A DNA stretch of 45,798 nucleotides, from positions 1-45,798 of IMG/VR virus record IMGVR_UViG_3300031890_000019, one strand, 5' to 3'. Source of the stretch: a virus. Lineage: Duplodnaviria > Caudoviricetes. The notes under the pieces were generated by a model. That model made no database searches. It was not told the DNA's origin and was given only the letters and a program-made list of their open reading frames with translations. A program made the position numbers and the translations under genes. Positions 1,966 through 42,600 of the stretch are shown in pieces (within the stretch, counting starts at the first letter, position 1; each line of letters starts with the position of its first letter).

Positions 1966-3420
1966 TCATCTAACCCACGAGAGCGTGGAGTCATAACGAT
2001 ACTTGCTCGCCAGTTTATTGAATGCTCCGCTCGAAGCATCCACCTGGTCGGCAAATTTCCCGGCCGGGAAATTTTCCATCTCATTTAAATAATCCCGGTT
2101 CCATTGCGCCGCCACCAGCCGCACATTGCCAGCCTGCCATTGCGCGGCAAAAGGATCGGCGCGGACCTCTTTCGCGCCCGACACGCGATCCGCCTCGACC
2201 TTGTAACCGGCCATCATCCGCACCGTCGCTTCGGCGCTTTCCTTGCCGCCTGATCCTGGCTCCTGCTCGATGACCACTTCCAGCTCGGGGTAAAACTGCT
2301 CATCGACCCGTGCCGTGTGTCTAATCATTCTCTCGCGCTCCAGCGCGCCCCATCGCCCACGTCGCACATCGACCACGCAATACGTGCCGTCGTCCATCAG
2401 CGTCATCAACACGCCAGCCGAATATGCGCCGCCTTCATGCGTCCCGGCCTTGTCCCAATAGCGAACGACCTTCGATACATTCGCCCTAGCCGGGATCTCA
2501 CGCACAATGGTCGCCCTGTCGATGGGGAACATATCGCCACCGACGATGATCGGTGCTTGCTGATACACAGATTGCCAGCCGGCCAGCGTCATGGTCGCAC
2601 GCTGCTTGTCGAGGAACTCAGCCGATTTCAATTCCGGAAACAGCGGCTCGCCTTCCTTGCGATATTCCTCGTCCTCCTCGGCCAGCGCCGGATAGCGGCA
2701 CACGCGCACATCTGGATTCAATTCCATCAACCGGCCAGCCGGATCGTCCAAATGCCAACGAGTCATTATCATCAGCAGTCCGCCCTTGTCGGAGAACCGC
2801 GTCATAAAGTCATCAGTCATCCATAACCATGTCTTCTCGCGAGTGAGCTGCGAATTAGCCTCCGCACGGCCCTTGATCGGATCATCGATCACGCCGATGT
2901 CCAATGATTCGCCGGTAACTTGGCCCTCGACGGTGGTGTTGCGAAAATAACCGCGATCCACGCCTTCACCATCGAATTCGATCATCTGGCTGTTCGCCAT
3001 CGATTTCCTCGGATCGAGGATCTGCTTGCCAAAAATCGCCGGATGTTTGGGGTTCATGAGAATACGTTGCAGCCTGACATTGGCGCGTATGCCAAGCCGG
3101 TCGCTGAACGAGGCAAAGATGAAGCGGATCGCAGGCTGCTTCTCTAGGAATGCCTGTCCGATGGCCCACGATACGAAATCGATGACCATCGTACTTTTTC
3201 CGTGTTGAGGCGGGCTCTGTAGTAATAGCTTTGGCCTCTTGCCCGCCAGATAATCCAACCAGAAGCGGTGCAGCTCGAGCGCAACCTCACGCTGCCACCA
3301 GCCCCAAATCATCTTCGGATTCATGTACTGGCGATATGACCAGAACGATTCCCGCGCCTCGAATTGCGCCAGTTCATCAACGAGGCGGAAATCGTCGGTA
3401 TTGAAAGCTGGCGCGGTCAT
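1966..3420 (-). CDS. terL: terminase large subunit
   Basis: Walker A PPQHGKS, Walker B IGVIDDP, MTRWH coupling motif, RNase H-like nuclease motifs YWDKAG, EQEPGSGGK, DQVDA. Confidence 0.95.
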   Translation of the reverse strand: MTAPAFNTDDFRLVDELAQFEARESFWSYRQYMNPKMIWGWWQREVALELHRFWLDYLAGKRPKLLLQSPPQHGKSTMVIDFVSWAIGQAFLEKQPAIRFIFASFSDRLGIRANVRLQRILMNPKHPAIFGKQILDPRKSMANSQMIEFDGEGVDRGYFRNTTVEGQVTGESLDIGVIDDPIKGRAEANSQLTREKTWLWMTDDFMTRFSDKGGLLMIMTRWHLDDPAGRLMELNPDVRVCRYPALAEEDEEYRKEGEPLFPELKSAEFLDKQRATMTLAGWQSVYQQAPIIVGGDMFPIDRATIVREIPARANVSKVVRYWDKAGTHEGGAYSAGVLMTLMDDGTYCVVDVRRGRWGALERERMIRHTARVDEQFYPELEVVIEQEPGSGGKESAEATVRMMAGYKVEADRVSGAKEVRADPFAAQWQAGNVRLVAAQWNRDYLNEMENFPAGKFADQVDASSGAFNKLASKYRYDSTLSWVR

Positions 3421-3740
3421 CGTCTTAGACGCAGTTCAACCACGTCTTCGATCCTGTGCGCCTCACGCAATCGCCGCAGGAACTCCTCGGTGATGGCAAT
3501 GAGGACCTGCGACTTGGCATTGAGATCGTCGCCCTCCAGCGCCCGCACAAGCCTGCGATTGCTCCACAACGATCTTCTGGTATCGCGACCATTGCCAGGA
3601 ATCACGCCCTGACGCTTCAATCGCAGCCAGCGCCGCGTCAAATTCTTTTCTTCAATCCCAAGCTCGGTGGCGACAACGAATGCCGGCTCGGGACTATGCC
3701 AAGCGCGCATCAACACTTCATCGGAAACGCGGGGTTTCAC
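3417..3740 (-). CDS. small HTH-like protein upstream of terL
   Basis: VATELGIEEKNLTRRW HTH-like pattern; ATGA overlap with terL. Confidence 0.5.
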   Translation of the reverse strand: MKPRVSDEVLMRAWHSPEPAFVVATELGIEEKNLTRRWLRLKRQGVIPGNGRDTRRSLWSNRRLVRALEGDDLNAKSQVLIAITEEFLRRLREAHRIEDVVELRLRR

Positions 3741-3928
3741 GTGTCCGGAATCTCAATGCCATCATCCGGTAACGCATCGACAATCGCGTTAGCAACCGCT
3801 TGCCGTTGCGGCCTAGACGAGCGAGGACCGTCTATCGAGATCGTGATCTTGGGATTGCCGCCATCATCGAGAAGCCATACGCCTATTGGACCTTGCTGCG
3901 CCGCCATCAACGCTGGTTTCAACTTCAT
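3737..3928 (-). CDS. hypothetical protein
   Basis: Overlaps the next gene by 4 nt; AGGAG RBS upstream. Confidence 0.45.
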   Translation of the reverse strand: MKLKPALMAAQQGPIGVWLLDDGGNPKITISIDGPRSSRPQRQAVANAIVDALPDDGIEIPDT

Positions 3929-19139: not shown

Positions 19140-19580
19140 TCAATGCTGCGTAGCGCGTTCTATGGCAGCTTCGATAGGGTGAGGCTCCTCCTCATTCGGC
19201 CTGTGTTTCTGCCCGCCTTCCTCGGCGGTGAACATTCCTTCCGGAGCAATGCGTTCAAAGTCGGTGCATTCCGCGAGGTAATAATGCAAATCCTCCCACA
19301 GCACGCGGGCCTTCATGGGATCGGCTTTGGCCTTGCTGTAGAGCCGTGCTGCAATGCGAGCTGCGGGAATATTCACGCCCTGGTCTTGGGCGCGTTTCGT
19401 GGCCGTCGAGAGTTCCTGGCCCGCCTCGCTGGTCGCGTTCTTGGTAGCGATGACCTCGGTGATGAAAGCTTTGACCGCCGCCACTGGCGCGAGTTGGCGG
19501 ATATGATCGCCTTCCGGCTCCTTCCGCCGTCCCTTTTTGGCTGATTTTGCTGGCTTTTTCGAGAGTTTCGGCTTCGCCAT
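19140..19580 (-). CDS. GapR/DUF2312-like nucleoid-associated protein (divergent)
   Basis: VKAFITEV...ELSTATKRAQDQGVNIPAARIAARL...LHYYL parallels the GapR pattern FIERIE...AK..GFD...LR.....LY. Confidence 0.45.
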   Translation of the reverse strand: MAKPKLSKKPAKSAKKGRRKEPEGDHIRQLAPVAAVKAFITEVIATKNATSEAGQELSTATKRAQDQGVNIPAARIAARLYSKAKADPMKARVLWEDLHYYLAECTDFERIAPEGMFTAEEGGQKHRPNEEEPHPIEAAIERATQH

Positions 19581-19657
19581 AACGGCCTCCGCTAGTGGTG
19601 TGAGGCCGGGAGGATACTACATATTGCGAGCGAAACGCGGGGAAAAATTCCCGACCG

Positions 19658-19687
19658 TGTGTTGCAAAAATAATTTTTGACAACACA
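19658..19687. promoter_or_regulatory. inverted repeat in the divergent promoter region
   Basis: TGTGTTG-CAAAAA-TAA-TTTTTG-A-CAACACA between the leftward and rightward operons. Confidence 0.45.
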
Positions 19688-19714
19688 ATAGGCACCAATC
19701 GATTCGGAGGCACC

Positions 19715-19921
19715 ATGCTCGCTCGGCTGGACGACGAGTGGCGGGAATGTCAGCACCACATAAAGGAATGCGAGCGCAGAGCCGCAGATCCTTTGGTCCC
19801 GCCAATCTGTCGCAGAGACTTTGAGTACCTGGCGGAAAGTTGGCGTCGCCTCGCCCGCTCTCTGGAATTTGCCGTGAGGGTTAGCGCCTACATCGAGTGG
19901 TCAGCACAGCGGATCAAATAG
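19715..19921 (+). CDS. hypothetical protein
   Basis: GGAGG RBS; first gene of the rightward operon. Confidence 0.5.
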   Translation: MLARLDDEWRECQHHIKECERRAADPLVPPICRRDFEYLAESWRRLARSLEFAVRVSAYIEWSAQRIK

Positions 19922-19931
19922 GGGGAAGGCG

Positions 19932-20924
19932 ATGCTAGTAAAGACGATCACCGCATTGAACGTGCAGGAGTGGGATGGCGAGCCAATCAAGAGGCCGGGA
20001 ATTTACTCTGGTATCCCGCTCGATCTCTATCATTCGGCAGAGATTTGTGTTGAACCGAGCATATCGTCTTCGGGATTGCGCTTGATCTACAGTCCATTCC
20101 CGTGGGTGAAGGCGAGCCCCGCGCATTATTGGTGCCAGAGCCCGTACAATCCCGATGCCGAAGAAGATGTGGACGAGAAGGAAGCGTTCATTCTTGGCCG
20201 CGCCGCACATCATCTGCTGTTTGGCGAAGCGGCATTCGATGAACTCTTTGTCGTGCGACCGGCCACCATCAACGGCGAGGCGTGGCACGGCAACAAAACT
20301 ATCTGCAAGCTGTGGCTGGAAAAGCAGCGTGACGCCGGTCTCTGCGTTCTCACGCCGGATCATCTGAAACGCATCAAGGGAATTGCGCGTGAGCTAGCGA
20401 AAGAGCCGCTGATAAATGATCCGGAAGGAAAGCGATCCGGCATTCTGAACGGCTACATCGAGCATTCGTGGTTCTTCAAGCATCGTACCGGAGTCTGGAT
20501 CAAGGTGCGGCCCGACGCGACGCCGAATGACAGTCTGGATTTTGTCGATCTTAAACTCACCAGATCGATCCTGTGGCCCGACATGCAACGCACGATCCGC
20601 GACTACGGCTATTGGATGCAAGCCGGGCTCACGGCGATGGCCGTGAAGGCGATCCTCGGCCAGCCAGTCAACTCCTATTCGTATGTATTTGCCGAGAACG
20701 CGGAGCCGCATTGCATCGATTTCGTCACGCTCAAAGAGAATGAGATTGGTCGAGGCGTCCAAGCCTGCGAGATTGCGATCAGCATCTTCGCCAAGTGTAT
20801 GCGCGAGAGGCGATGGCCTGGGCCGCGCGGCGACCGTGCCGATGCGCAGTTTATTGAGATGCAAGAGGCAGATCAAAAACGAATTGACGAAACCCTAGCG
20901 CAGGATCGGAGGAATAGTAAATGA
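19932..20924 (+). CDS. RecE/exonuclease VIII-like PD-(D/E)XK nuclease (DUF3799 type)
   Basis: PGIY.GIP...YH, ISSSGL, GRAAH, KVRPD, VDLK, YGY.MQA motifs. Confidence 0.9.
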   Translation: MLVKTITALNVQEWDGEPIKRPGIYSGIPLDLYHSAEICVEPSISSSGLRLIYSPFPWVKASPAHYWCQSPYNPDAEEDVDEKEAFILGRAAHHLLFGEAAFDELFVVRPATINGEAWHGNKTICKLWLEKQRDAGLCVLTPDHLKRIKGIARELAKEPLINDPEGKRSGILNGYIEHSWFFKHRTGVWIKVRPDATPNDSLDFVDLKLTRSILWPDMQRTIRDYGYWMQAGLTAMAVKAILGQPVNSYSYVFAENAEPHCIDFVTLKENEIGRGVQACEIAISIFAKCMRERRWPGPRGDRADAQFIEMQEADQKRIDETLAQDRRNSK

Positions 20925-21355
20925 TGGCGGCCCTTCATCGATTGAAACCCAAGAAGCGGATACTGCCATCGCGGGCCGACTACTACTCCCTTGTCAACCT
21001 GGCGACGAATGTCGGCCCACCCTTTGACGGCGGCCACCTCAGGAGTGTGACCCAATGTTGCATTGCCGCCATCAACGGGCCGACCAAAAACCGATTGCTC
21101 GCCAAAGATCGCAAGTCGGCCCGATCTTTTTTGGACGGCAACCACGTACATTCTGAACCCCATGTTCAAGGTGTTGCTGTCCGGGCCGACCACTTTGTTG
21201 GTGCAATCCATATCTCGGATGTCGGCCCGATCTTTTCGACGGCCACTAGGCGCTTGTTCACCAGGAGCATCGTGCCGTCATGCGGGCCGACCAGAACAGT
21301 GGTGCCAACCATTCCCCCGCTGTCGGCCCGTCCTTTTCAAAATAGGAGAGTGTGA
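20921..21355 (+). CDS. ORF spanning the entire TIGR array (may be translated; protein function doubtful)
   Basis: GGAGG at 20908-20912, ATGA overlap with the recE stop, and its TGA overlaps the next start. Confidence 0.3.
   Translation: MMAALHRLKPKKRILPSRADYYSLVNLATNVGPPFDGGHLRSVTQCCIAAINGPTKNRLLAKDRKSARSFLDGNHVHSEPHVQGVAVRADHFVGAIHISDVGPIFSTATRRLFTRSIVPSCGPTRTVVPTIPPLSARPFQNRRV
20923..21330 (+). ncRNA. TIGR-type stem-loop guide array, 8 units
   Basis: Each unit is stem-CCA-N9-TG-N4-CCA-N9-TG-stem, e.g. GGGCCGA CCA CTTTGTTGG TG CAAT CCA TATCTCGGA TG TCGGCCC. Units at 20923, 20973, 21024, 21076, 21133, 21183, 21238, 21283. Confidence 0.9.
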
Positions 21356-22122
21356 TGAAAGAGAAAGAGAAAGAAACTGCGATGTCCGCCGCGATGAAAC
21401 GCGCCGGTCTAAATGTTGTAACGTCGGCACTCTATGTCGCCGCCGTCGAAGCCCTGCGTGAACGCTCGCTACCGGAGGCGCTGCGGATATTCACCAAACA
21501 ACTGCTGGCGAAACGGCAATTGTTAGACGCACTTGCCTTGCCATATCTGCAGGACGTGGCGAGCGATATGAAAAAGCCCGGCCATTCAAGCAATGATGAA
21601 ACCACAACACCGGCGCCGGGCCTAAGTGGCGGCCCTTTGGCTGATGAAGCCCCCAAACATGCTGCCGCCAAGGACGACCGCCAACCGCCGGCTGCGACCC
21701 AATGGACCACTGCGGTCGTCCCCCCTATTTCCTCGAAGCGCCGCGACGCCGCCAAGCGTGCCGCCCGTGCCGAGATTGATGCGCTAGATCCGATTTTCAA
21801 AATACGCCGGATTAGCGGCACCTACATCGGCAATTTGAGATGGCGCGAATTGCAGGAAATCGCGCGTCGCAATTCATGGACCGCCGCCAAGGCACTTGAA
21901 CGCGGCACCATCGCGACGGAGAACGTCTTTCTCTGCATGAAGATTTTGAACTATGCCAAGCCGGTTGACCCTGACGCGCGTGTTCACAACATCGTGCCGC
22001 CCGCCAAGCTCTTGACGTTCATGAATGAAATCAGGATCGAGGTGCCACAGTTCATTGCCAAAGCGGAAGAAGAACACGCTCGCAGAACGCTCAATCACAG
22101 GGAGATTCAACATGCGAGCTAA
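21352..22122 (+). CDS. uncharacterised Tas-associated protein containing 3 in-frame TIGR units
   Basis: AGGAG RBS; helical N- and C-terminal parts with a low-complexity linker encoded by the units at 21576-21721. Confidence 0.7.
   Translation: MMKEKEKETAMSAAMKRAGLNVVTSALYVAAVEALRERSLPEALRIFTKQLLAKRQLLDALALPYLQDVASDMKKPGHSSNDETTTPAPGLSGGPLADEAPKHAAAKDDRQPPAATQWTTAVVPPISSKRRDAAKRAARAEIDALDPIFKIRRISGTYIGNLRWRELQEIARRNSWTAAKALERGTIATENVFLCMKILNYAKPVDPDARVHNIVPPAKLLTFMNEIRIEVPQFIAKAEEEHARRTLNHREIQHAS
21576..21721 (+). ncRNA. 3 TIGR units embedded in a CDS
   Basis: e.g. GGACGACCG CCA ACCGCCGGC TG CGAC CCA ATGGACCAC TG CGGTCGTCC (21672-21721); others at 21576-21621 (6-nt loop) and 21627-21670. Confidence 0.8.
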
Positions 22123-23269
22123 GAAAAGCCGAAGCCACCCCGGCGCTGATGCCCTGGGAGACCATGCTTCGGTTTCTAAGCGGGCCAGCCTATCTCTGAA
22201 ACCCACAGGAAGCCTGCTCGCATCTGACGGCCAGGAACGTGCTAATCTCCTCCAGCCGAGTGCCGTCAGCGGCCCAAAGGTAACTGACAACCCGTTACCT
22301 GCTGCCAACGACATCGCGGACCAACCACCGCTTGAAACCCAGCCGCCTGATGTCCGCGATGTCGTCCTTTCCATTCGTATCGCACATCGTCGTCGCCGTT
22401 ATGCCTTAAAGCAGCAGCAAGGCGTGGATCGCCGCTGCGAGGGCTATGTCAGATCGAACTACACAAACTGGCACCCTGAAATGAAGGATGATGACCGCGA
22501 GCGTATCCACAAGGAAGTCGAAGCGCATCTGAACCGCGCACGATCCGGCGAGCATGAGGATGCTGGCCTCATTGATCTTGTACGTGTTACCGACGAGATG
22601 CGCGCCCCAGTCGACCGGATTAGGTCACAACAAGAGAAGTTGATGGAGAAGCTAGCGGCGCAACTTCCTGGCTATGACTTTGTAAAATCTGTTTCCGGTG
22701 CTGGTGGTATCGGGTTTGCGACGATTGTTGCGGAATGCTCGGGACTTGATCGCGTGACTGGCGAGATCACGACACTTGATGATTATCCCCATTGGATGAA
22801 GGTGTGGAAGCGGCTCGGCTTCGCGCCTTACGAGGGCTTCGCCGGTTCCACTTGGAAGCGAGAAAAATGGCGACCACGCTCGTTGTCATCGGACGAATGG
22901 ATCAAGAATCCGTTCGCAGGTGAACGCTATGCGTTAATGATTATGATCGCCGATTCCCTGTTTCGTAAGCAGTGGCAAAGTGCCGAGAAGGCTGGCGCAG
23001 ACGAAGGCAAGCCGACCGGCCCTTATGGTCAGTGCTATGCAGATCGGCGGCGAGTAACCGCAGTCACGCATGGCGATTGGAGCAAGCAACACAGTCACCG
23101 TGATGCTCTCAGGGTAATGATGAAACAATATCTGAAAGACCTGTGGAGCGCATGGAGGAAAGATAGCAAGACGGCCGGTCAATATCTGACAGCCACCGAT
23201 CATGTGCCGTCTGCCGCGCCCGGCCAAGCCCCGATTGAAAACCACCGATCAGTTGCCGGGCGCACTTAA
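22112..23269 (+). CDS. TasA-like Nop-domain RNA-binding protein (IS110/Nop-related, no nuclease domain)
   Basis: Coiled coil, then LP.YDFVKSVSGAGGIGFATIVAE, Y....KVWKRLGFAP, and C-terminal H..RDALRVMMKQYLKDLW..W. No DEDD RuvC or HNH domain. GGAG RBS before ATG 22112; flanked by TIGR units. Confidence 0.85.
   Translation: MRAKKSRSHPGADALGDHASVSKRASLSLKPTGSLLASDGQERANLLQPSAVSGPKVTDNPLPAANDIADQPPLETQPPDVRDVVLSIRIAHRRRRYALKQQQGVDRRCEGYVRSNYTNWHPEMKDDDRERIHKEVEAHLNRARSGEHEDAGLIDLVRVTDEMRAPVDRIRSQQEKLMEKLAAQLPGYDFVKSVSGAGGIGFATIVAECSGLDRVTGEITTLDDYPHWMKVWKRLGFAPYEGFAGSTWKREKWRPRSLSSDEWIKNPFAGERYALMIMIADSLFRKQWQSAEKAGADEGKPTGPYGQCYADRRRVTAVTHGDWSKQHSHRDALRVMMKQYLKDLWSAWRKDSKTAGQYLTATDHVPSAAPGQAPIENHRSVAGRT
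22126..22365 (+). ncRNA. 5 TIGR units embedded in the 5' end of the Tas gene
   Basis: Units at 22126, 22180, 22224, 22271, 22308; e.g. ACGACATCGCGGA CCA ACCACCGCT TG AAAC CCA GCCGCCTGA TG TCCGCGATGTCGT. Confidence 0.85.
23169..23263 (+). ncRNA. 2 TIGR units embedded in the 3' end of the Tas gene
   Basis: AGACGG CCG GTCAATATC TG ACAG CCA CCGATCATG TG CCGTCT and GCGCCCGG CCA AGCCCCGAT TG AAAA CCA CCGATCAGT TG CCGGGCGC. Confidence 0.85.
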
Positions 23270-23468
23270 TTTGCGAGGCCCATCCTTTAACCAATTGCAG
23301 AAGCTGATTTACAATCTGAGCTGCTACGTCGGATGCTTCGCCGTGCTGATGCAGTTGGAAGTTGTTTCTTTTGTTGCGATTGGCCTCATGCAGATCACCT
23401 GTCTGATGTTGTTGAAGCGGACGACGCACGGATTGTTGGCCGGGATGCGGGAGCCAGAATGTAGGTGG

Positions 23469-23514
23469 TTAATTTATGATAGCACTTGCTAAAATTTATT
23501 TCTGCGAGCATGAT
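23469..23514 (+). promoter_or_regulatory. operator copy 3 plus sigma70-type promoter for the Cas7-like operon
   Basis: TTAATTTATGATAGCA (23469-23484) immediately before TTGCTA (23486)-N17-CATGAT (23509). Confidence 0.55.
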
Positions 23515-23615
23515 GCCGGTGCCTGTCAGGACTCCAATCAAAATCCGCGCGCGTGATGGCGGCCCCGAGTTTCCCTGACAGGCGGCTCGGGGCCGTTCAC
23601 GCATGGAGAATTACT

Positions 23616-24500
23616 ATGGCTAAAGCAGCTAAAGCGAAGAAGCCGGTCAAGGAAGAAACAGTCATTGAAATTCAGGAGATTCAAACACAGGAAGCCCGGT
23701 TCAATGTCCTCGGCACGTCGCCTCTTATCATGCACCGCTTTCCCTTCAAGGCATGGCAAGAGCTGATCCTGCCTGCCCGCAAAGAGAACCGCGCCGCGTT
23801 GGAGCAGACGCTCAAGCACTTGCCGATTGAGGAATATCGGGAGTCGTTTTATCGCAACAGCAATCCCAAGGCGAAAACGCTCTTTCATGTTCCCAACCGG
23901 ATGTTCGCTTGTGCCATTGCTCAGGCTGCCGTGGATATTCCCGGAGCTGCGCGGGCGCAGATCGAGCGGCTGACGCGGGTCACGGACATCAACATCGAGT
24001 TGTTCGGTGTCCCGCAAATCTTCTGCGCGATGGTTCGCAACTCGGGCATGAACCGAAGCCCCGATGTGCGGACGCGACCGATCTTCCCGCAATGGGGGTG
24101 TCGCGTCACCGTGCGGTTTGTCGTTCCGATCCTGACGGAAAGAAACGTGCTGCATCTGGCAGGAGCGGCGGGACTCATCGTCGGCATCGGCGATTGGCGC
24201 GGCGAGAAGGGCGGCCCTTACGGGGCGTTCCGCATCGTCAGCGATAGTGATCGTGATTTCACTCAGGTGTTGAAACAGGATCGCAGATCACAGCAATCGG
24301 CTTACGACGCGCCGGTCTATCACGACGAGGATACCGAAGCGATCTTGAGCTGGTTCGACGCGGAGCTGCGCCGTCGCGAACAGGACGGCTCGGCGCAACA
24401 GCGGCGGCGGCGCGGTAATGGACCGAAAACAAAGAAGGTCCACGTCGTCGATGGTTCGGAAAAGGATGAAACCTTTATGCGAACGGAGGCCGTGTCGTGA
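23616..24500 (+). CDS. stand-alone Cas7/RAMP-like protein
   Basis: First strand F.VLGTSPLIMH; VP..MF..AI..AA helix; RTRPIFPQW...V.V.F; C-terminal glycine-rich loop AG..VGIGDWRGEKGGPYGAF. GGAG RBS before ATG 23616. Confidence 0.75.
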   Translation: MAKAAKAKKPVKEETVIEIQEIQTQEARFNVLGTSPLIMHRFPFKAWQELILPARKENRAALEQTLKHLPIEEYRESFYRNSNPKAKTLFHVPNRMFACAIAQAAVDIPGAARAQIERLTRVTDINIELFGVPQIFCAMVRNSGMNRSPDVRTRPIFPQWGCRVTVRFVVPILTERNVLHLAGAAGLIVGIGDWRGEKGGPYGAFRIVSDSDRDFTQVLKQDRRSQQSAYDAPVYHDEDTEAILSWFDAELRRREQDGSAQQRRRRGNGPKTKKVHVVDGSEKDETFMRTEAVS

Positions 24501-24991
24501 CGAAACGGGCGGAAGCACTCACCGCCGCGATCCTTGCCTGCCGCGATAAGGATGGAAGGATCACAAAGCGCAGGGTTTTTACTGCGGCCCGCGATGACAA
24601 GAGAAGTCTACTCGGGCGACAGTTTAACTGGAATCTGCGCGAAGCGGCGGAACGACACTGGCTCGACCGTGCTGGCGAACTGATAAAGCAGTACATCACC
24701 ATCACGGTCGTCAACAAAAGCGTGAAAATCAAGTCCGTTGCCTACGTGAGAGACCCAAGACTCCCTGCACGTCAGGAAGGCTTTTGTTCTCTTGCCGACG
24801 TGGCGCAATCCGACGCCGAAAAAATCACGCTGGATGAACTTAACCGTTGCGAGAGCGCAATACTCCGGGCTCGCGCGGTAGTCGGCGTTCTTGACGCGCG
24901 CTTTCCGGGCCTAAGCGACAAACTGGAAAATGCGCTCAGTTTGCTCGTTGAAGCTCGAACTCAAATCAATAGCCGCAGGAAAGCTGCGTAA
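24497..24991 (+). CDS. partner protein translationally coupled to the Cas7-like gene
   Basis: GTGA overlap; G.IT...V..AARD...L...F.W....AA..HWL..A..LI pattern. Confidence 0.7.
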   Translation: MTKRAEALTAAILACRDKDGRITKRRVFTAARDDKRSLLGRQFNWNLREAAERHWLDRAGELIKQYITITVVNKSVKIKSVAYVRDPRLPARQEGFCSLADVAQSDAEKITLDELNRCESAILRARAVVGVLDARFPGLSDKLENALSLLVEARTQINSRRKAA

Positions 24992-25004: not shown

Positions 25005-25500
25005 GGTCAGGTATGGCAGGCGTAGGTGGACGAGGACTGAGGAGCCCTTAGCATTGGTGAGTTGGGGGCGGTCTTGGGTCGGAAAGGCAGGTGAGGCGTG
25101 ACGAGGATTGATGAGTCTCGTCTAGGCGGCGTCGGTCGCGGGCGGCAGGTCGGGTCGGTCTTGGTCTGGTCGGTTGGGCGGGATTCGGAAGGATTTGGTG
25201 TGGCAGGCTGGTTATGGAACGGTGCGAAAGGTTGCGGCTGTTCCGGATCTGGCAAGGTGGCGCACGGAAAGGCAGGTGTGGACGGCAAGACCTGTTCGGG
25301 TCGGGCAGTGCTCGGTTGGGCAATACCGATCAGGTGGGGCAGGCAGGTCGTGGCCTGGCGCGTTGCGTTCGGGTCGGGCAGTGCTCGGTTGGGCATGTCC
25401 GTGTTCAGGTCCGTCCGGGCAGGCGAGGCGCGTAAGGCCCGTTGCGGTCAGGCTTGATACGGCTGGCTCCGGCAGGCGGGTCCCGGCAGCGCCCGGTAAA
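25005..25500 (+). repeat. G-rich 5-nt-periodic (GGY-NN) array segmented by GGCAGG; putative guide-RNA array
   Basis: GGCAGG at 25015, 25086, 25144, 25202, 25271, 25338/25342, 25418, 25471. The unit at 25202 reads GGCA + 13 pentamers: GGCTG GTTAT GGAAC GGTGC GAAAG GTTGC GGCTG TTCCG GATCT GGCAA GGTGG CGCAC GGAAA. Confidence 0.8.
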
Positions 25501-25504
25501 GATT

Positions 25505-25538
25505 ACCTAGCGGCGGCGTAAAACCTGCCGCTAGGTTT
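25505..25538 (+). terminator. hairpin closing the main pentamer array
   Basis: ACCTAGCGGCGG-loop-CTGCCGCTAGGT followed by TT. Confidence 0.5.
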
Positions 25539-25657
25539 GATGAAGTGAGGCGAGGCTAGGTCGGACGACTTGCGGCGTGGCGAGGTTTGACGCGAACAAG
25601 TCATGTCATGGCCCGGCCTCACCTGACTTCATTCAATCAAACCAACGGAGGAGAAAC

Positions 25658-27913: not shown

Positions 27914-30900
27914 TCATGCGAGCCAATCTGCTGTTGGTTCGCCGAATTGCTCTTTCGTCCATCCGCTCATTGATCTGAAATACGGCTCGATCTGTTTGCG
28001 ATATTGTATCCATCCCTGCCGGAACGAGATCGCCGATTGCCATAGCTGGTGTCTCTCGAAATGAGAACCGTCGACCGTCATCGGCACACCGCAAGCAATC
28101 ACCCTGACGTGCCCGAGCCTCCGCGCGACGCAGAAGGCAAACAATCCGGTTGAGCCACGCCACTCCTCACTCGCAGTGTCGTGCGTGACCGCGCTGTGTT
28201 TCCGGTGCGCCCAAACCTGCTCCGGCTTCGGAAGTCCTGCTCTCTCCCGTTCGCCCAGCCACGCGAAGTGTCCGTTCAGTTTGTCAGGATGCAGGGTGCA
28301 AGCAACCCCCGGTTCGGCAAATGATTTGATGTGATCGTTAATATAGAGGTAGCGAAACTTTTTTCCTTTAAGTAATTCCTTGGCCCGCTCAAGATCCTCG
28401 CGCCAGCACTCAGCACCGCCGACTATGACCGCTATCTCCGGCGTGAGATTAATGGGGAGCTGTCCGGCCTTGCGTGCCTCATGTGAGCAGCTCTCGATGA
28501 GATTGAACTTGTCTCCGATAACCCGGCCATGACCCTCGACACCACGCAGCACCGGATCGTCCGACTGCCCCGGCGTCCACTCCTTCACGTCATCGAATCC
28601 GGCGAAGAACAGCGTGTCGCGCATGAGCTGCGCGTTCCATGCCGTCTCGTGTCCGTGCGCGTAGATGATGGCGTGCATTGACCCGCGTTTGGTCGGACCG
28701 ACCTTCTGCCACTTGGTCGTGAACTGCCAGTAATCGCGTTCCTCACATTTAGCGATTTGCTCAAGGCTAGGAACCGTCACCCGCAGCTTGCCGCCAGGAG
28801 CCAGCACGCGCAGCGCCTCCTTGAAGAACTCGATTGCCGCCTTGTAGGGGACGTGCTCGACGCAATGCTCGATCGATATGTGGCTAGCGCTGTTATCGGG
28901 CCACGGCAGGCGCTTGGTAATGTCCACGTCAGCGTCGTGGTTCTCCCAGCCGGTCATCTTGTTGGTGCCGCAGCCCAGATTGAATCTTCTAAGCTGCGGC
29001 ATCGTTACAGGTCTGTTGGTGTTGCTGTGTTCAGCGGGCATCACCTCCTCTTTCGGTGCCTCGGGCACCGCATTCCTCTCTGCCAGCGCCATCTCCACGA
29101 ACCTTTGATAAACGCCCTGCTGGGCGCTGTTGTGCTGGTGCGTGACCCAATCGAGGTTGAGGTCGCCGATGTTGTCCTTGGTGATCTGATTGCGATCCGC
29201 ACGCAGCGCCTTCCACGGCATGAAGCGGAAATTCTGCCGCGTCATCCCGAGCTGGCCTTCAAGAATGAATTGCCTGATCCACCGTTCCGGCGTTGGCGTG
29301 GCAAACCGATTCGGCCAATCATAGCGGCGGATGAAATCGCTGCGCTTGAGGAAATCGGTGGTGAAGAACATCAGGCCGGTTTCGACCCAGCCGCTGCTCA
29401 ATCCCGGTACGCGCATTCCCTCCACGATGGTCGAAGCGATCTCGACCTTCTCTTTGCGCATCCAGTTGGTGGTATCCATCACCTTCAACCTAAACAGGCT
29501 ATCGCCCTCGATGTGCACGGCGAACTCGTAGCCGAGGCCGATGGCGATCTCTAATCCCTTGCAGAAGGCGCGGCCCCAGCCGTCACGGCCTTGCGTCGTG
29601 CTTCTGCGGCTGAGGTGCCCGATGTTGTTGGCAAAGTTGAAATACATGCAGTGATGGCGCCAGCCGTCATACGGCGTCCAATCGGCGAACTTCTTCACTG
29701 GAGACTGCGAATCGACGGCGAGGAAATCACAATCGTCATTGAGCGTCAGGTGCAGTTTCTTCCATAGATCGGTGAGACCGATGCGATCCTCACTGTCGAT
29801 ATAGAACGTGCCGAAAACCAGCGTGTTGGCATTGCGGCGGGTGCCGACAAATTCCTTCACCTTTGGCAAGGCTGCATCCATGTTAATCCGCTTATTGCAG
29901 GCATGATGCGCGCTGTGGCAGTCACAGGGATTGATTGTGTCAATCGGCAGCGTCGGAGCCAAGTGCGCGCCGACGCGCTGTGTCGTGCGATAACTCTCGC
30001 GCCCGCCATAGACCACGATCACTGGCGTGCCCACGGACTGCGCCAGGACCGGAGCAAAACCGGCATTGCAGAATATCAGATTTGCAGCAGAGAACAGCGC
30101 CGCCATTTCCGGAAAGTCTAGCTCGCCCTTGTGAAGCTTGACATCGGCCTCTTGCTCGGGGCCTTCGATCCACTCTCGGCCCGGCGCCAGATCGGCGATG
30201 CTGACGACAAAGAATTGCTGCCTGATTGAATTGTAAAGATCGTGATAGTGCTGCGGATCGGGATTGCGCGTGCGTCCGTTCCATTCTGTGCGCAGCACTA
30301 CCGGACGGTGAACCATCAGCGGCCTGCCATTGGTGTTCCATGTGCTGAGGTATTTGTCGCGGACGATATTGCTCCACTCGGGTTTGATGGGCAGGCTGAA
30401 ATCCGGCTTCTGCGGCATCTTCAATCCGGCGCAACTGAACATCGCTTCAAGAATGCTACCGTGCTGGTCAACGAGAACCTTGGGATAGCCGATGTTGAAT
30501 TGCCGTGCGTTGCGCGGCGGCGGAGGAAAGGTGAACAAGTGCTGTTCGCGGGCGATGGTCTTGGCCTGTGCGTGCAGCGATGTCGGCCGCATAATCAGCT
30601 TGAGGCCGCGCTCGATCAGATCGTGATAGAGGTAGTAGTGACAGGTACGAAGCCAGACATCGTTCTGCTTCATCAGCTCCCGCATCAGGGCGCGTTGATG
30701 CAGCGCATCGCCGATGCCGAAGTGCCCCGTCACCACCAGCGGCGCTCCCGACGGCACGGCCTGCTTGGGGACATTCGATTCCATCTGAATGACCATGTCG
30801 TCACGCAGCAACAATTGGCTCAAAGTGCCCTCGTTCAAGTTCACCCTGACGCTGCCGCCCGGCGGTATCGTGACCTCGCTGTTACCGGCGTTATAAATAA

Positions 30901-30940
30901 CACGCGGTGACGGCGATATGTTCTGAACCGTGCAGATCAT
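27914..30940 (-). CDS. multidomain glycosyltransferase/methyltransferase
   Basis: GT9-like (GIGDAL...HKGEL...AALFSAANLIFCNAGFAPVLAQSVGTPVIVVYG); second GT-A-like region (VHIEGDS); class I MTase (NLGCG, HCVEHV, RVLAPGGKLRVTVP); C-terminal Rossmann-like domain (IVGGA, GSTGLFA, LG..RVIACGVPM). Confidence 0.75.
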   Translation of the reverse strand: MICTVQNISPSPRVIYNAGNSEVTIPPGGSVRVNLNEGTLSQLLLRDDMVIQMESNVPKQAVPSGAPLVVTGHFGIGDALHQRALMRELMKQNDVWLRTCHYYLYHDLIERGLKLIMRPTSLHAQAKTIAREQHLFTFPPPPRNARQFNIGYPKVLVDQHGSILEAMFSCAGLKMPQKPDFSLPIKPEWSNIVRDKYLSTWNTNGRPLMVHRPVVLRTEWNGRTRNPDPQHYHDLYNSIRQQFFVVSIADLAPGREWIEGPEQEADVKLHKGELDFPEMAALFSAANLIFCNAGFAPVLAQSVGTPVIVVYGGRESYRTTQRVGAHLAPTLPIDTINPCDCHSAHHACNKRINMDAALPKVKEFVGTRRNANTLVFGTFYIDSEDRIGLTDLWKKLHLTLNDDCDFLAVDSQSPVKKFADWTPYDGWRHHCMYFNFANNIGHLSRRSTTQGRDGWGRAFCKGLEIAIGLGYEFAVHIEGDSLFRLKVMDTTNWMRKEKVEIASTIVEGMRVPGLSSGWVETGLMFFTTDFLKRSDFIRRYDWPNRFATPTPERWIRQFILEGQLGMTRQNFRFMPWKALRADRNQITKDNIGDLNLDWVTHQHNSAQQGVYQRFVEMALAERNAVPEAPKEEVMPAEHSNTNRPVTMPQLRRFNLGCGTNKMTGWENHDADVDITKRLPWPDNSASHISIEHCVEHVPYKAAIEFFKEALRVLAPGGKLRVTVPSLEQIAKCEERDYWQFTTKWQKVGPTKRGSMHAIIYAHGHETAWNAQLMRDTLFFAGFDDVKEWTPGQSDDPVLRGVEGHGRVIGDKFNLIESCSHEARKAGQLPINLTPEIAVIVGGAECWREDLERAKELLKGKKFRYLYINDHIKSFAEPGVACTLHPDKLNGHFAWLGERERAGLPKPEQVWAHRKHSAVTHDTASEEWRGSTGLFAFCVARRLGHVRVIACGVPMTVDGSHFERHQLWQSAISFRQGWIQYRKQIEPYFRSMSGWTKEQFGEPTADWLA

Positions 30941-39614: not shown

Positions 39615-42600
39615 TCACCTGTACCACGAGGGCTTGGAGCCACCTGATCGCAGCTTACGATCAACGGCATAATTCTGCACCTGGTCGATGGCGTGCGGCG
39701 GCGCGGTAAATCCGCTGAACGTATTGCCATCGATGACGATGTTGACCGGATGACCCTGCGGTGCGGAGCCAGCAGAGCTGCCGCCGATCCCGACACTCAT
39801 GTTGTTAGACGACGGTTGCATTGTTTCGCTGAGACCGCCGACCAAACCGCCATTGAACATTTCTGCAATAGCCGAGCCCACTATGGCTGGTTCAGGTGAC
39901 GATGCACGCTCTCTTGGGAGCCCACCGAGAGTAGGCAATGCACCGCCACCGCTACGGCGGTCACTGGCTGCCGCGTAGTTGATTGTTTGATCGCTGCTGT
40001 CTACCGATCCACCGCTGGAAAATGTTTGCGCAATTGAACCGAAATAGTTTGCGAGATTGCTGACAGTGCTGCCAACCGCGTTGCTTACCGGCCCTCCGCG
40101 AGCAAAATGTTGAACGATAGAGCTGAGATTGCTGATGCCAACTCGTCCGCCGTCAGAGAACGATTGAGCGAACCTGCTGCTGACGAGATTGTTGACAAGA
40201 CCGCCCGTTACATAGTTTCGAATAATGTGATCGACCAAACCGCCCGCGCTGGCGCCGGGGGCCGCTTGCGAGTCGGCTTCTCCCGCATTTGGATTGCGGG
40301 TGTCTTTCGCTATTTGACCATCCCCGGCGAAGGGCGAGGTATGGATAATAATGCTATCCCCAACTGATCCGCCAGTCGCAAAATGCTCATTGATGCTGTT
40401 GCTGGTTACATCGCCGCCGACAACACCTCCGGCTGCAAAGTGTGGTGCATTGATGTTTGTGGTGTCGCCGTCCTGTTGTGTGTTAGTGACGTGCGAACTC
40501 GAGTCCGTGTCTGGCCGGATTAAAACGCTAGGCTGGCGGGTACTGCCATGACGGTCGCGAACGTCAAAAGTGCCTCTATCCCCAACTGATCCGCCACTAG
40601 CGAATGATTGCTCGCTGCTGATCCGGCTTACGCCGCCGATGACAGTATCACCACCAACTATACCCCCGGTGGCAAAGCGCGGTGCGTTGATGTTTGTGGT
40701 ATCACCGCCCTGTTGTGTAGTTACGCCGCGGGTTTCGCTACGTGAGGCGTCGATGACCGTGCCGCCAGCGGCAAAATGCTGAGTATCAGACGAGGACGAA
40801 TCAATGCTGATTGGTCCGCCTGTGCTGAAATGAGTCTGCGAACCTTCTTGAGTGATATTTGGAGCTGCCGCTGTATGCCGCACAGAGAGATCACCCTGCC
40901 GCTCTGGCGAGCCGTCACTGGCCTTCTGCTGGCTTTGCTTCTCGGGCTGCTGGTGGGATACAGCATTGGCTTCCATGCGGGTTGAAACATCACCGCCGCG
41001 CACATTGACGACACCGCCGCCCGCAAAATGCTGAATGATAGTCTTGTCGGTATCTCCGCTTACGGGGCCGCCGGTGGCAAAATATTGGCCCGCTGATACG
41101 TTTGTCGTTTGATTGCTGGCTGTCGTGCTGTCAGTCGCCGTCGTGCTGGTCGTATCACCGCCGATTTCCCCACCTTCTGCAAAAGTAGTCGGAGCGTTGA
41201 TGCTGGTTGCGCCATCGCCTATCACCGCTCCTCCGGCTGTGAATTGTCTGGCATTGATATTTGTGCTGCTGGTGATATTTTTTACGTCGCCGCCAGCGGC
41301 AAATGAGGCAGTATCAACATTGCTATCACCACCTGTGATGTTTTGAGTGCTGATGCTTGATTGTTTACTCGCTTGCTCGCTGATCGTGTTCTGACTTTGT
41401 GTTGTGCTTTTTACATCGCCGCCAACGGCATAAGACGACCAAGCCTGGTTCAAATTTGTTGAATTGGCTAGAGCAACCTCAACCTCGCCGCCTTTCGCGT
41501 AATCACCGCGTGCGATCAAACCTCCCCAGGCGTGAGGACGGAAATGACTGATAGCTTCACCGAGGTTACTGCCATCGGCCCTGACAACATACTCGCCAAC
41601 GGAGAGCATGGCCGGAACGTCATCGCTGGTGCCGCTACCGAAGCCGCGAACGTGACCGCCGCCAGCTTGCTCAACTCCGGGTCCAAGCATTCCTCCTCGC
41701 GCTGGAGCCGGAGCTGCTTGTTGATTTAACTGACCCAGCTTGCCTGTCGTTTTATCAACTTCCGTTTGAAGTTTTTGGAGTGACGCTGAGGTGGCGTCTG
41801 CTGGTGCCGGTATCTTGCCCAGACTTGCTGAAACGTCTGGTATCTTGGATGTCTCTAGCGTTGGTTGACCGGCTGGTGGTGGCGGTGCTTGACTCGGAGG
41901 AACAAGAGGAACGCCTTGGCGCCTTAATTCCGCGTCGAACTGGGCTTGAGTAAATGGCCGCTCTATGTGCGGTGCTTTTGCCTCGGCTTCTGCCTTCTTC
42001 CTATCCTCCTCGATTTGTTTGAAAACCATATTGATCGGGCCGCCCGTTGCGGAGGGTCGGGTCAGATCAATCGGCAGCGACAATGGTACGCCGGGCTTCG
42101 GTCCTTCTTCCTCCTTCTTTGCCGCCTCCTTCTTCTTGGTTTCGACCTGCTTACTTGCTTCCGCTTCTGCCCTGACTTGTTCGGTCGCCTGCTCGATTGT
42201 CAGCGCCTCTGTTCGCCGTTTGTTGGCTACCTCCTCCTCCGATTTCATCACCAGATCGAGCGCCTTGGACTCCTGTGCCCGCGTCAGCGGTGCCCGCACA
42301 TCAGCAAGGCTATAAGCTTGGCGATACCCGGCCTCGCCCGGTTGCACGCGAGCTGCCAGCTCCTCGCGAGCTTGCGCCTCTGCCCGTCGCCGCATTGGCG
42401 CTTCTCTGGCTTCTCGTTCCTTTTCCGGAAGTGCCAAGAGTTGAGCCTCGACCTCGGGGCCTGCTCGTTTGCGCATCTCCACTACGAGTTCTTCGGTCCT
42501 AGCCTTGGTGTTCGCGTAATCTGCTTCGCGTATTTTCCGCTGTTCATCGCGGCGTTTCCGTTGTTCTTCCTCATACTGCTCGCCTGAAAGCGGCGGTACA

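Follow-up and report, generated by a model that had tools for sequence, protein, structure and literature searches.

Can an array of guide RNAs also be a reading frame, and if so, what keeps that frame open? The question is raised by a TIGR (tandem interspaced guide RNA) locus in a tailed phage, IMG/VR record IMGVR_UViG_3300031890_000019, whose whole 45,798-bp contig is the window analyzed here. The gene order is recE, an open reading frame (ORF) that consists of array only, a conserved partner gene, and tas, all of them joined by overlaps between starts and stops. An earlier note, made from the sequence alone, had proposed that every TIGR unit in the locus lies inside an ORF, that guides are excised from the mRNA at the cost of the tas message, and that spacers are constrained to keep the frame. 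Our comparison with related loci suggests that selection keeps the frames of these arrays open. We favor, with a probability of about 0.6, an explanation in which coverage of the arrays by ribosomes, for translational coupling and protection against polarity, is the selected feature.

Guide units inside reading frames

TIGR units were sought by motif plus stem, that is, by the pattern stem, CCA (box C), spacer, TG (box D), loop, CCA, spacer, TG, stem. The scan detected 17 units within 20922-23263, and one more, degenerate unit (box C at 22273, stem of 2-3 bp) was placed by hand as the 18th. When both strands of the contig were scanned more strictly, no unit was found outside the locus; a weak match at 39720 from the first scan dropped out and was discarded. 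All 18 units parse as two 9-nt spacers with CCA and TG boxes, several of the boxes having single deviations. Stems are palindromic, variable, and 5-13 bp long in 17 units, boxes C are spaced 42-58 nt apart, and folding z scores are -3.3 (units 1-8) and -4.3.

All of these units are on the plus strand, as are the genes that hold them. Units 1-8 (20922-21331; box C at 20931, 20980, 21034, 21084, 21142, 21190, 21243, and 21291) lie in the array-only ORF. Units 9-11 (21576-21721), which have spacer-swapped strain variants, encode the linker of the partner protein, while units 12-16 (22126-22365) encode the N-terminal leader of Tas (codons 5-85), and units 17 and 18 (23169-23263) its C-terminal tail (the last ~33 codons). 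Scan and translation bear out what the earlier note had said of the three linker units and the five and two units at the ends of Tas, namely, that they contain no stops, and the same is true of all 18 units in their host frames. In none of the 18 does box C occupy codon position 1; in that register, the TG of box D would begin a codon, and TGA or TAA would result in 12 of them. Unit 15 (~22271-22306) is degenerate: its spacers are in part self-complementary, its stem is nearly absent (22273-22304), and it is possibly a dead guide. The 18 guides have no target with two or fewer mismatches in their own genome, where the best match has three, and none in the related loci that we fetched. CTT starts 1-3 nt 3' of 6 of the 17 listed units (2, 4, 6, 8, 16, and 18), a count for which no null was computed. 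In the main array, U-rich runs with CTT (21124-21131, 21230-21237, and 21332-21337) stand behind every second unit and look like both a CUU processing motif and terminator tails.

The array-only ORF (20921-21355) runs for 144 codons across units 1-8. As the earlier note had read from the sequence, it has a GGAGG ribosome-binding motif (20908-20912), 8 nt before the ATG at 20921, and overlaps at both ends: it starts on the recE stop, with which its ATG forms ATGA, and its own stop overlaps the partner gene's GTG 21352 and ATG 21355. A second ATG (20924) is paired within the stem of unit 1. At the far end, in the last codons of the ORF, a short hairpin (21331-21357) predicted with ViennaRNA would pair the AGGAG (21344-21348) of the partner gene. 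Searches of Pfam and PHROG with the ORF returned no match. The frame stayed open in 13% of 20,000 trials when spacers were shuffled, and in 1.6% when spacing was shuffled too and the end overlap was required. The openness of this ORF in this genome alone is weak evidence, and since a chance test on a single genome is insufficient, we turned to relatives.

Array frames among relatives

Searching viral contigs with the single protein gave no relative; alignment-based searches yielded the loci used here. Taking representatives at 85% Tas identity brought 72 loci down to 39, of which 37 carry units, 504 in total; the locus in the window (L026) is one of the representatives counted. Among clusters of at least four units that do not lie entirely in the tas frame, 31 of 46 were stop-free in one frame (28 loci, this one included), compared with 14.8 expected when spacers were shuffled and 7.5 when spacing was shuffled as well. 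For clusters of at least six units, 19 of 28 were open against 6.7 and 2.2 expected. An ATG beside the stop of the upstream gene opened a frame through the whole array at 21 of 30 junctions that follow a long gene (23 loci), where 8.8-10.0 were expected.

Evidence for constraint also comes from a test in which nothing but an ATGA or TRATG overlap set the frame, openness itself not being selected (28 junctions, 21 loci, 151 units). The coupled frame contained 12 stops, compared with 119 and 74 in the other two. Stops that overlap spacers numbered 6 in the coupled frame against 23.9 expected (Poisson, 0.002 after scaling to the other frames), and box C fell at codon position 1 in 6 of the 151 units. 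This depletion across relatives lends support to the idea, put forward in the earlier note, that spacers are under a frame constraint. The arrays also lead closely into what follows. Where an open array has a next gene, it ends -5 to +21 nt from the start of that gene in 22 of 27 cases, 11 of them by an exact 4-nt overlap (hand count), and a same-strand gene follows 42 of the 44 arrays with enough flank, mostly 20-35 nt on. Units coded within proteins favor register 3 (106:25), while those in coupled array ORFs favor register 2 (125:69).

Individual array ORFs from relatives (L021, L028, L045, L046, L048, and L071) were picked by hand and are illustrative. L021 has a 441-codon ORF across 24 units, and in L045, L046, and L048, array ORFs of 192-223 codons begin on the tas stop. 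In L071, a guide leader has seemingly been duplicated (2241-2732 and 2591-3856); the upstream copy is a six-unit array ORF that ends in a remnant of the start of the Tas core, after which come a new ribosome-binding site and a tas with seven more units.

Units are gained, lost, and exchanged in frame, as the earlier note had anticipated for homologous loci. The array between partner and tas holds 6, 4, 6, and 4 units in L002, L005, L007, and L010, each of these arrays having an ATGA overlap at either end, and the ORF 5' of the partner gene has eight units here, two in L028, and four in L071. Variants from near-identical strains tell a similar story. Their residue changes fall in unit codons (19 of 19 in P0127, 15 of 16 in P0132, and 8 of 8 in P0137), form blocks of amino acid replacement, and introduce no stops, while P0128 has 34 additional residues at the Tas tail. 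Contigs from 4 of 24 runs revealed spacer swaps of entire units (9 and 12) and, in run X22, an extra 3' unit; a -1/+1 pair in spacer B of unit 9 in run X20 was taken as a spacer swap and not as indels. The array peptides are not conserved beyond the residues coded by boxes and stems.

Tas and its partner

The tas gene (22112-23269, 385 amino acids) is preceded by GGAG at 22101-22104, and its ATG overlaps the last codons of the partner gene. In an AlphaFold model, Tas has a Nop/coiled-coil core (approximately residues 81-356) and no nuclease domain. The mean predicted local distance difference test (pLDDT) score is 70, mostly above 85 in the core and below 50 at residues 1-78, 238-268, and 357-385. 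RuvC and HNH are absent; residues 1-78 form the coil coded by units, and the helical core follows directly. The top ten Foldseek hits are TasH and TasR chains (best E 8e-4, probability 1.00, TM score by target 0.63), and a profile search of PDB sequences returned only TasR and TasH, weakly (E 0.42 and 0.77). Because the model is TasH/TasR-like and lacks a nuclease domain, it identifies the protein as a nuclease-free TasA of a stem-loop TIGR system. An IS110 family transposase was considered and rejected, the N-terminal RuvC-like (DEDD) domain being absent from the model and from a Pfam scan. A dual-repeat TIGR system was rejected as well, given that the locus has no regular short-period edge and loop repeats but variable stems and boxes C 42-58 nt apart.

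The units at the 5' end of tas appear to be unavoidable for the ribosome. Between 22112 and the conserved core (approximately residue 82), a search for starts found no in-frame ATG, GTG, or TTG, and close relatives (P0003 and P0134) start Tas at the equivalent position. Tas therefore cannot be made without translation through the five leader units, and the earlier note's concern that the true start might lie 3' of the units is not borne out. An alternative start at 22025 falls within the partner gene and leaves this conclusion unchanged. The leader is probably an array ORF that became fused to tas, since the interval between partner and tas holds a separate coupled array ORF in many relatives.

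The partner gene (21352-22122) is conserved and encodes 255 amino acids from ATG 21355 or 256 from GTG 21352; the ATG is the more likely start because of its spacing to AGGAG. The protein consists of two conserved domains connected by the guide-coded linker (units 9-11), and in relatives without linker units, both domains form one ORF. We found its C-terminal domain in 54 of 73 loci (31 of 39 representatives), nearly always adjoining tas, and the linker has one to four units in 12 of the 31 representative partner genes (assigned by hand). A Pfam scan of 26 members revealed no family common to more than one, searches of PDB and Atlas with the partner protein gave no family, and the structure model was unusable (mean pLDDT, 40). 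One related locus has a truncated partner gene (L073:4026-4511) with a linker that resembles in-frame units and without a match to the C-terminal domain.

Why array frames may stay open

We suggest that ribosomes would traverse the guide arrays and pass translation on to the gene that follows; the peptide that the arrays encode appears largely dispensable. Coverage of structured RNA in the middle of an operon would prevent termination, either Rho dependent or at hairpins with U tracts. The ribosome on the array ORF would also cross the predicted hairpin and free the occluded AGGAG of the partner gene. Some transcripts would be cut into guides and lose their role as message, and the TasA-guide complex would repress DNA targets, by analogy with other TasA proteins. 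We favor ribosome coverage because the arrays lie mid-operon (42 of 44), because U-rich runs come after several of the stems in this locus, and because pairing is predicted for the AGGAG of the partner gene. An explanation by anti-polarity or coupling fits this anatomy. As far as the consulted parts of the literature go, coupled ribosomes block terminator hairpins and the loading of Rho (PMC5021804), and CRISPR arrays, being untranslated, are held to be susceptible to termination by Rho, which is countered by boxA antitermination (10.64898/2026.07.09.737519).

A number of observations weigh against this explanation. Clusters of two or three units were open in 33 of 38 cases against 29.9 expected, which is not significant, and spacers are mildly stop-poor in the other two frames too (19 versus 30.1 and 21 versus 26.9 expected). 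All frames are stopped in 15 of the 46 larger clusters. On inspection by hand, six of these consist of ORFs chained together by close coupling (L001, L008, L011, L017, L019, and L028), and nine appear to be broken (L004, L013 twice, L018, L023, L031, L041 twice, and L042). Because a gene follows all 15 closed arrays, coverage cannot be essential. Fifty of the 504 units lie outside any ATG-started ORF, so that the claim that every unit is in an ORF, which holds for all 18 units of this genome, does not extend to its relatives. In L071, a close relative, the first 3' unit contains the tas stop and a second unit lies beyond tas; in L029, the units that follow the tas stop are not spanned by any single open frame. 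Nor do ATGA and TRATG overlaps discriminate when taken alone: they occur at 31 of 64 junctions compared with 66 of 179 other stops of long ORFs, and at 30% of all stop triplets in the same comparison. Finally, the loci are related and units duplicate, and the P values therefore overstate independence. Stops in homologous arrays, which the earlier note had regarded as damaging if they occurred freely, are thus found in a minority (15 of 46 stopped in all frames, nine broken) and are not general. Open frames are a strong tendency among the relatives, not a law. With respect to the closed clusters, the common loop TGATGC has a built-in stop-restart (TGATG) that comes into play if box D is put in the reading frame by a frameshift, and such restarts are seen in three of the chains of coupled ORFs (L001:5281, L008:4870, and L028:2909).

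Among alternatives to ribosome coverage, feedback fares best. It holds as its main point that Tas binds the guide hairpins in its own nascent mRNA or sets off their excision, so that the message is blocked or destroyed and synthesis of Tas and the partner falls, much as the earlier note had envisaged. The anatomy offers some encouragement. ATG 20924 is paired in the stem of unit 1, unit 12 starts 14 nt after the tas ATG, and in most relatives unit 1 is no more than about 10-35 nt away from the ATG of the array, such that binding of Tas to unit 1 or to unit 12 could block initiation. In addition, the compared text of Xu et al. (10.64898/2026.09.09.750476) describes processed guides from the coding sequence of BlTasA and suggests a coupling to translation. 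However, only 94 of 504 units, spread over 19 of 37 loci, are in the tas frame. Many relatives have no unit in tas, so that loss of its coding sequence is not the general case, and array-only ORFs 3' of tas (L045, L046, and L048) cannot regulate Tas in this manner. We consider feedback unlikely as the main point, while it is plausible as a layer added to ribosome coverage, with which it is compatible.

It is less probable still that open frames are a by-product, with palindromic inserts surviving wherever genes are left unbroken and array-only ORFs being functionless leftovers. This view could account for the units in tas and in the partner gene, and it draws on the nine broken arrays, on the presence of linker units in only 12 of the 31 representative partner genes, and on the chance of 0.13 that ORF 20921 would be open given its layout. 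It does not explain the array-only ORFs, whose frames remain open over up to 24 units despite spacer turnover and whose overlaps are kept at both ends as the number of units changes.

We give little credence to the proposal that separate internal promoters make the guides, so that the mRNA is translated only and does not serve as guide precursor. Xu et al. (10.64898/2026.09.09.750476) note that co-transcription and internal promoters are not distinguishable by sequence and leave room for this proposal, yet each of the four unit clusters would require a promoter of its own, and a sigma-70 scan found no site in 19500-23270, which is a weak test for a phage of the alphaproteobacterial type. Over 19500-23700, that scan gave one site (23287) against 2.1 expected, and the scan for promoters and terminators as a whole was at chance level. 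Least probable of all is that the guide-coded peptides are functional themselves, for example as variable parts of proteins: the preference for register 3 in proteins and register 2 in array ORFs suggests some filter at the peptide level, but ORF 20921 has no family match, a switch of register within an ORF yields a wholly different peptide, the differences between strains are blockwise replacements, and the model shows the unit-coded parts of Tas as coil of low confidence.

A broader picture can be drawn, though in its entirety it is tentative and less likely than not to hold. In a large clade of phages, arrays would be disposable coupled genes, and the ribosome would act as antiterminator, a counterpart of boxA/Nus. 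Tas on the first hairpin would be a feedback attenuator, the genetic code would filter spacers, and the partner, present in 54 of 73 loci, could be a processing or spacer-acquisition factor that is still missing from the system.

Genomic setting

The contig has the genes of a tailed phage, including the terminase large subunit (E 1e-74), a tape-measure protein, and RecE-like and RecT-like proteins. The recE-like exonuclease VIII gene (19932-20924, plus strand; PHROG 412, E 3.9e-51; Pfam DUF3799) ends in the TGA that overlaps the ATG of the array ORF. Among the locus-bearing runs listed, 24 of 24 are soil metagenomes. The closest named relative is L071, on a contig of a Xanthobacteraceae metagenome-assembled genome (Tas identity, 69%), which points to an alphaproteobacterial host.

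Directly 3' of the TIGR locus is a likely VIPR system (23616-24991 and 25007-25570, plus strand) made up of a phage-family protein that weakly matches SUSP1 Vipr (E 0.025) and a coupled gene of 164 amino acids. In the GGY-rich tracts behind it, 5-nt gaps account for 18 of 71, compared with 4% genome-wide. If the VIPR identity is true, two RNA-guided silencing systems adjoin each other between recE and recT. A sigma-70-like site at 23287-23315 (plus strand), just 3' of tas and 5' of the Vipr-like gene, is at chance level. Elsewhere, an ORF of 1,008 amino acids (27914-30940, minus strand) resembles, as judged by eye, a fusion of glycosyltransferase and methyltransferase.

Guides of related loci were also compared with one another. 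Under the published rule, 600 guides gave four ungapped matches with one mismatch compared with 1, 0, and 0 in three controls, and 36 matches with two mismatches compared with 17, 19, and 30. Cross-targeting among relatives is suggestive only on these numbers. By our estimate, chance alone would produce about one match to an 18-nt target in the viral collection. Guides of L049 (box C at 1860 and 582) and L017 (3856) match the tas of other loci under the tandem-spacer rule, and tas is matched by relatives' guides with one mismatch in L035, L037, L043, and L052 and with two in several more. Conflict of TIGR against TIGR is possible from such matches, whose numbers are near chance overall. Within the window, 11090 (plus strand) and 35111 (minus strand) are one-mismatch targets of a linker guide of L028 and a guide of L016/L048.

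Relation to known systems

Units inside tas are a known layout, since Xu et al. (10.64898/2026.09.09.750476) published intragenic tas units. The compared portion of their paper describes stem-loop units at the 5' end of tas, at its 3' end, or internally, with the frame intact and in disordered regions; intragenic guides of BlTasA were recovered, a link to Tas translation was suggested, and TasA represses transcription. The locus in the window shares with the BlTasA system a nuclease-free Tas and stem-loop units at both ends of tas in disordered regions. It differs in that the BlTasA text places intragenic units in tas only, while here they are found also in the partner linker and in coupled array-only ORFs, with stop depletion across the family. 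The stem-loop array of PlTasA (PMC12045711; 10.64898/2026.08.11.744272), as far as its compared text goes, is likewise built of two 9-nt spacers with box C (CCA) and box D (UG), and has variable palindromic stems, several sub-arrays, and TasA. In contrast, its sub-arrays are separated intergenically, and the text compared does not mention a coding role. In the TIGR literature searched, to the extent of its compared text, array-only ORFs, units in the partner gene, and the partner family were not found, though supplements and figures may hold them. Thus, units inside tas and the link to translation were already published, whereas the array-only ORFs and partner units were not found in the texts searched.

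Other guide and transposon systems offer partial parallels. CRISPR arrays with boxA/Nus, in the part of the study compared (10.64898/2026.07.09.737519), pose the same problem of a long guide array that must be fully transcribed despite Rho; they are noncoding and use boxA, while ribosome coverage would be the solution here. The IS110/IS116 transposases share a Nop-related C-terminal fold with Tas (PHROG 4285 "transposase," E 6.5e-10; IS621 by Foldseek, E 0.13), but Tas lacks their RuvC-like N-terminal domain, and its guides are box C/D stem-loop units rather than bridge RNA. Palindromic elements of Rickettsia are also carried in frame within proteins as palindromic RNA elements. Unlike these, the elements here are guide units of an adjacent effector, and their spacers are rapidly swapped.

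Implications

Our findings bear on two questions left open by Xu et al., the maturation of stem-loop guides and the origin of intragenic guides, and they single out the conserved partner gene as a candidate for knockout. In engineering work, good expression of native stem-loop arrays in Rho-dependent hosts may depend on a translated frame. If arrays are translated, TIGR arrays annotated as intergenic, along with the Pro/Arg-rich hypothetical proteins called over them, have been misread. More generally, guide production and effector synthesis would then compete for one and the same transcript, and every new spacer would have to pass through the filter of a reading frame.

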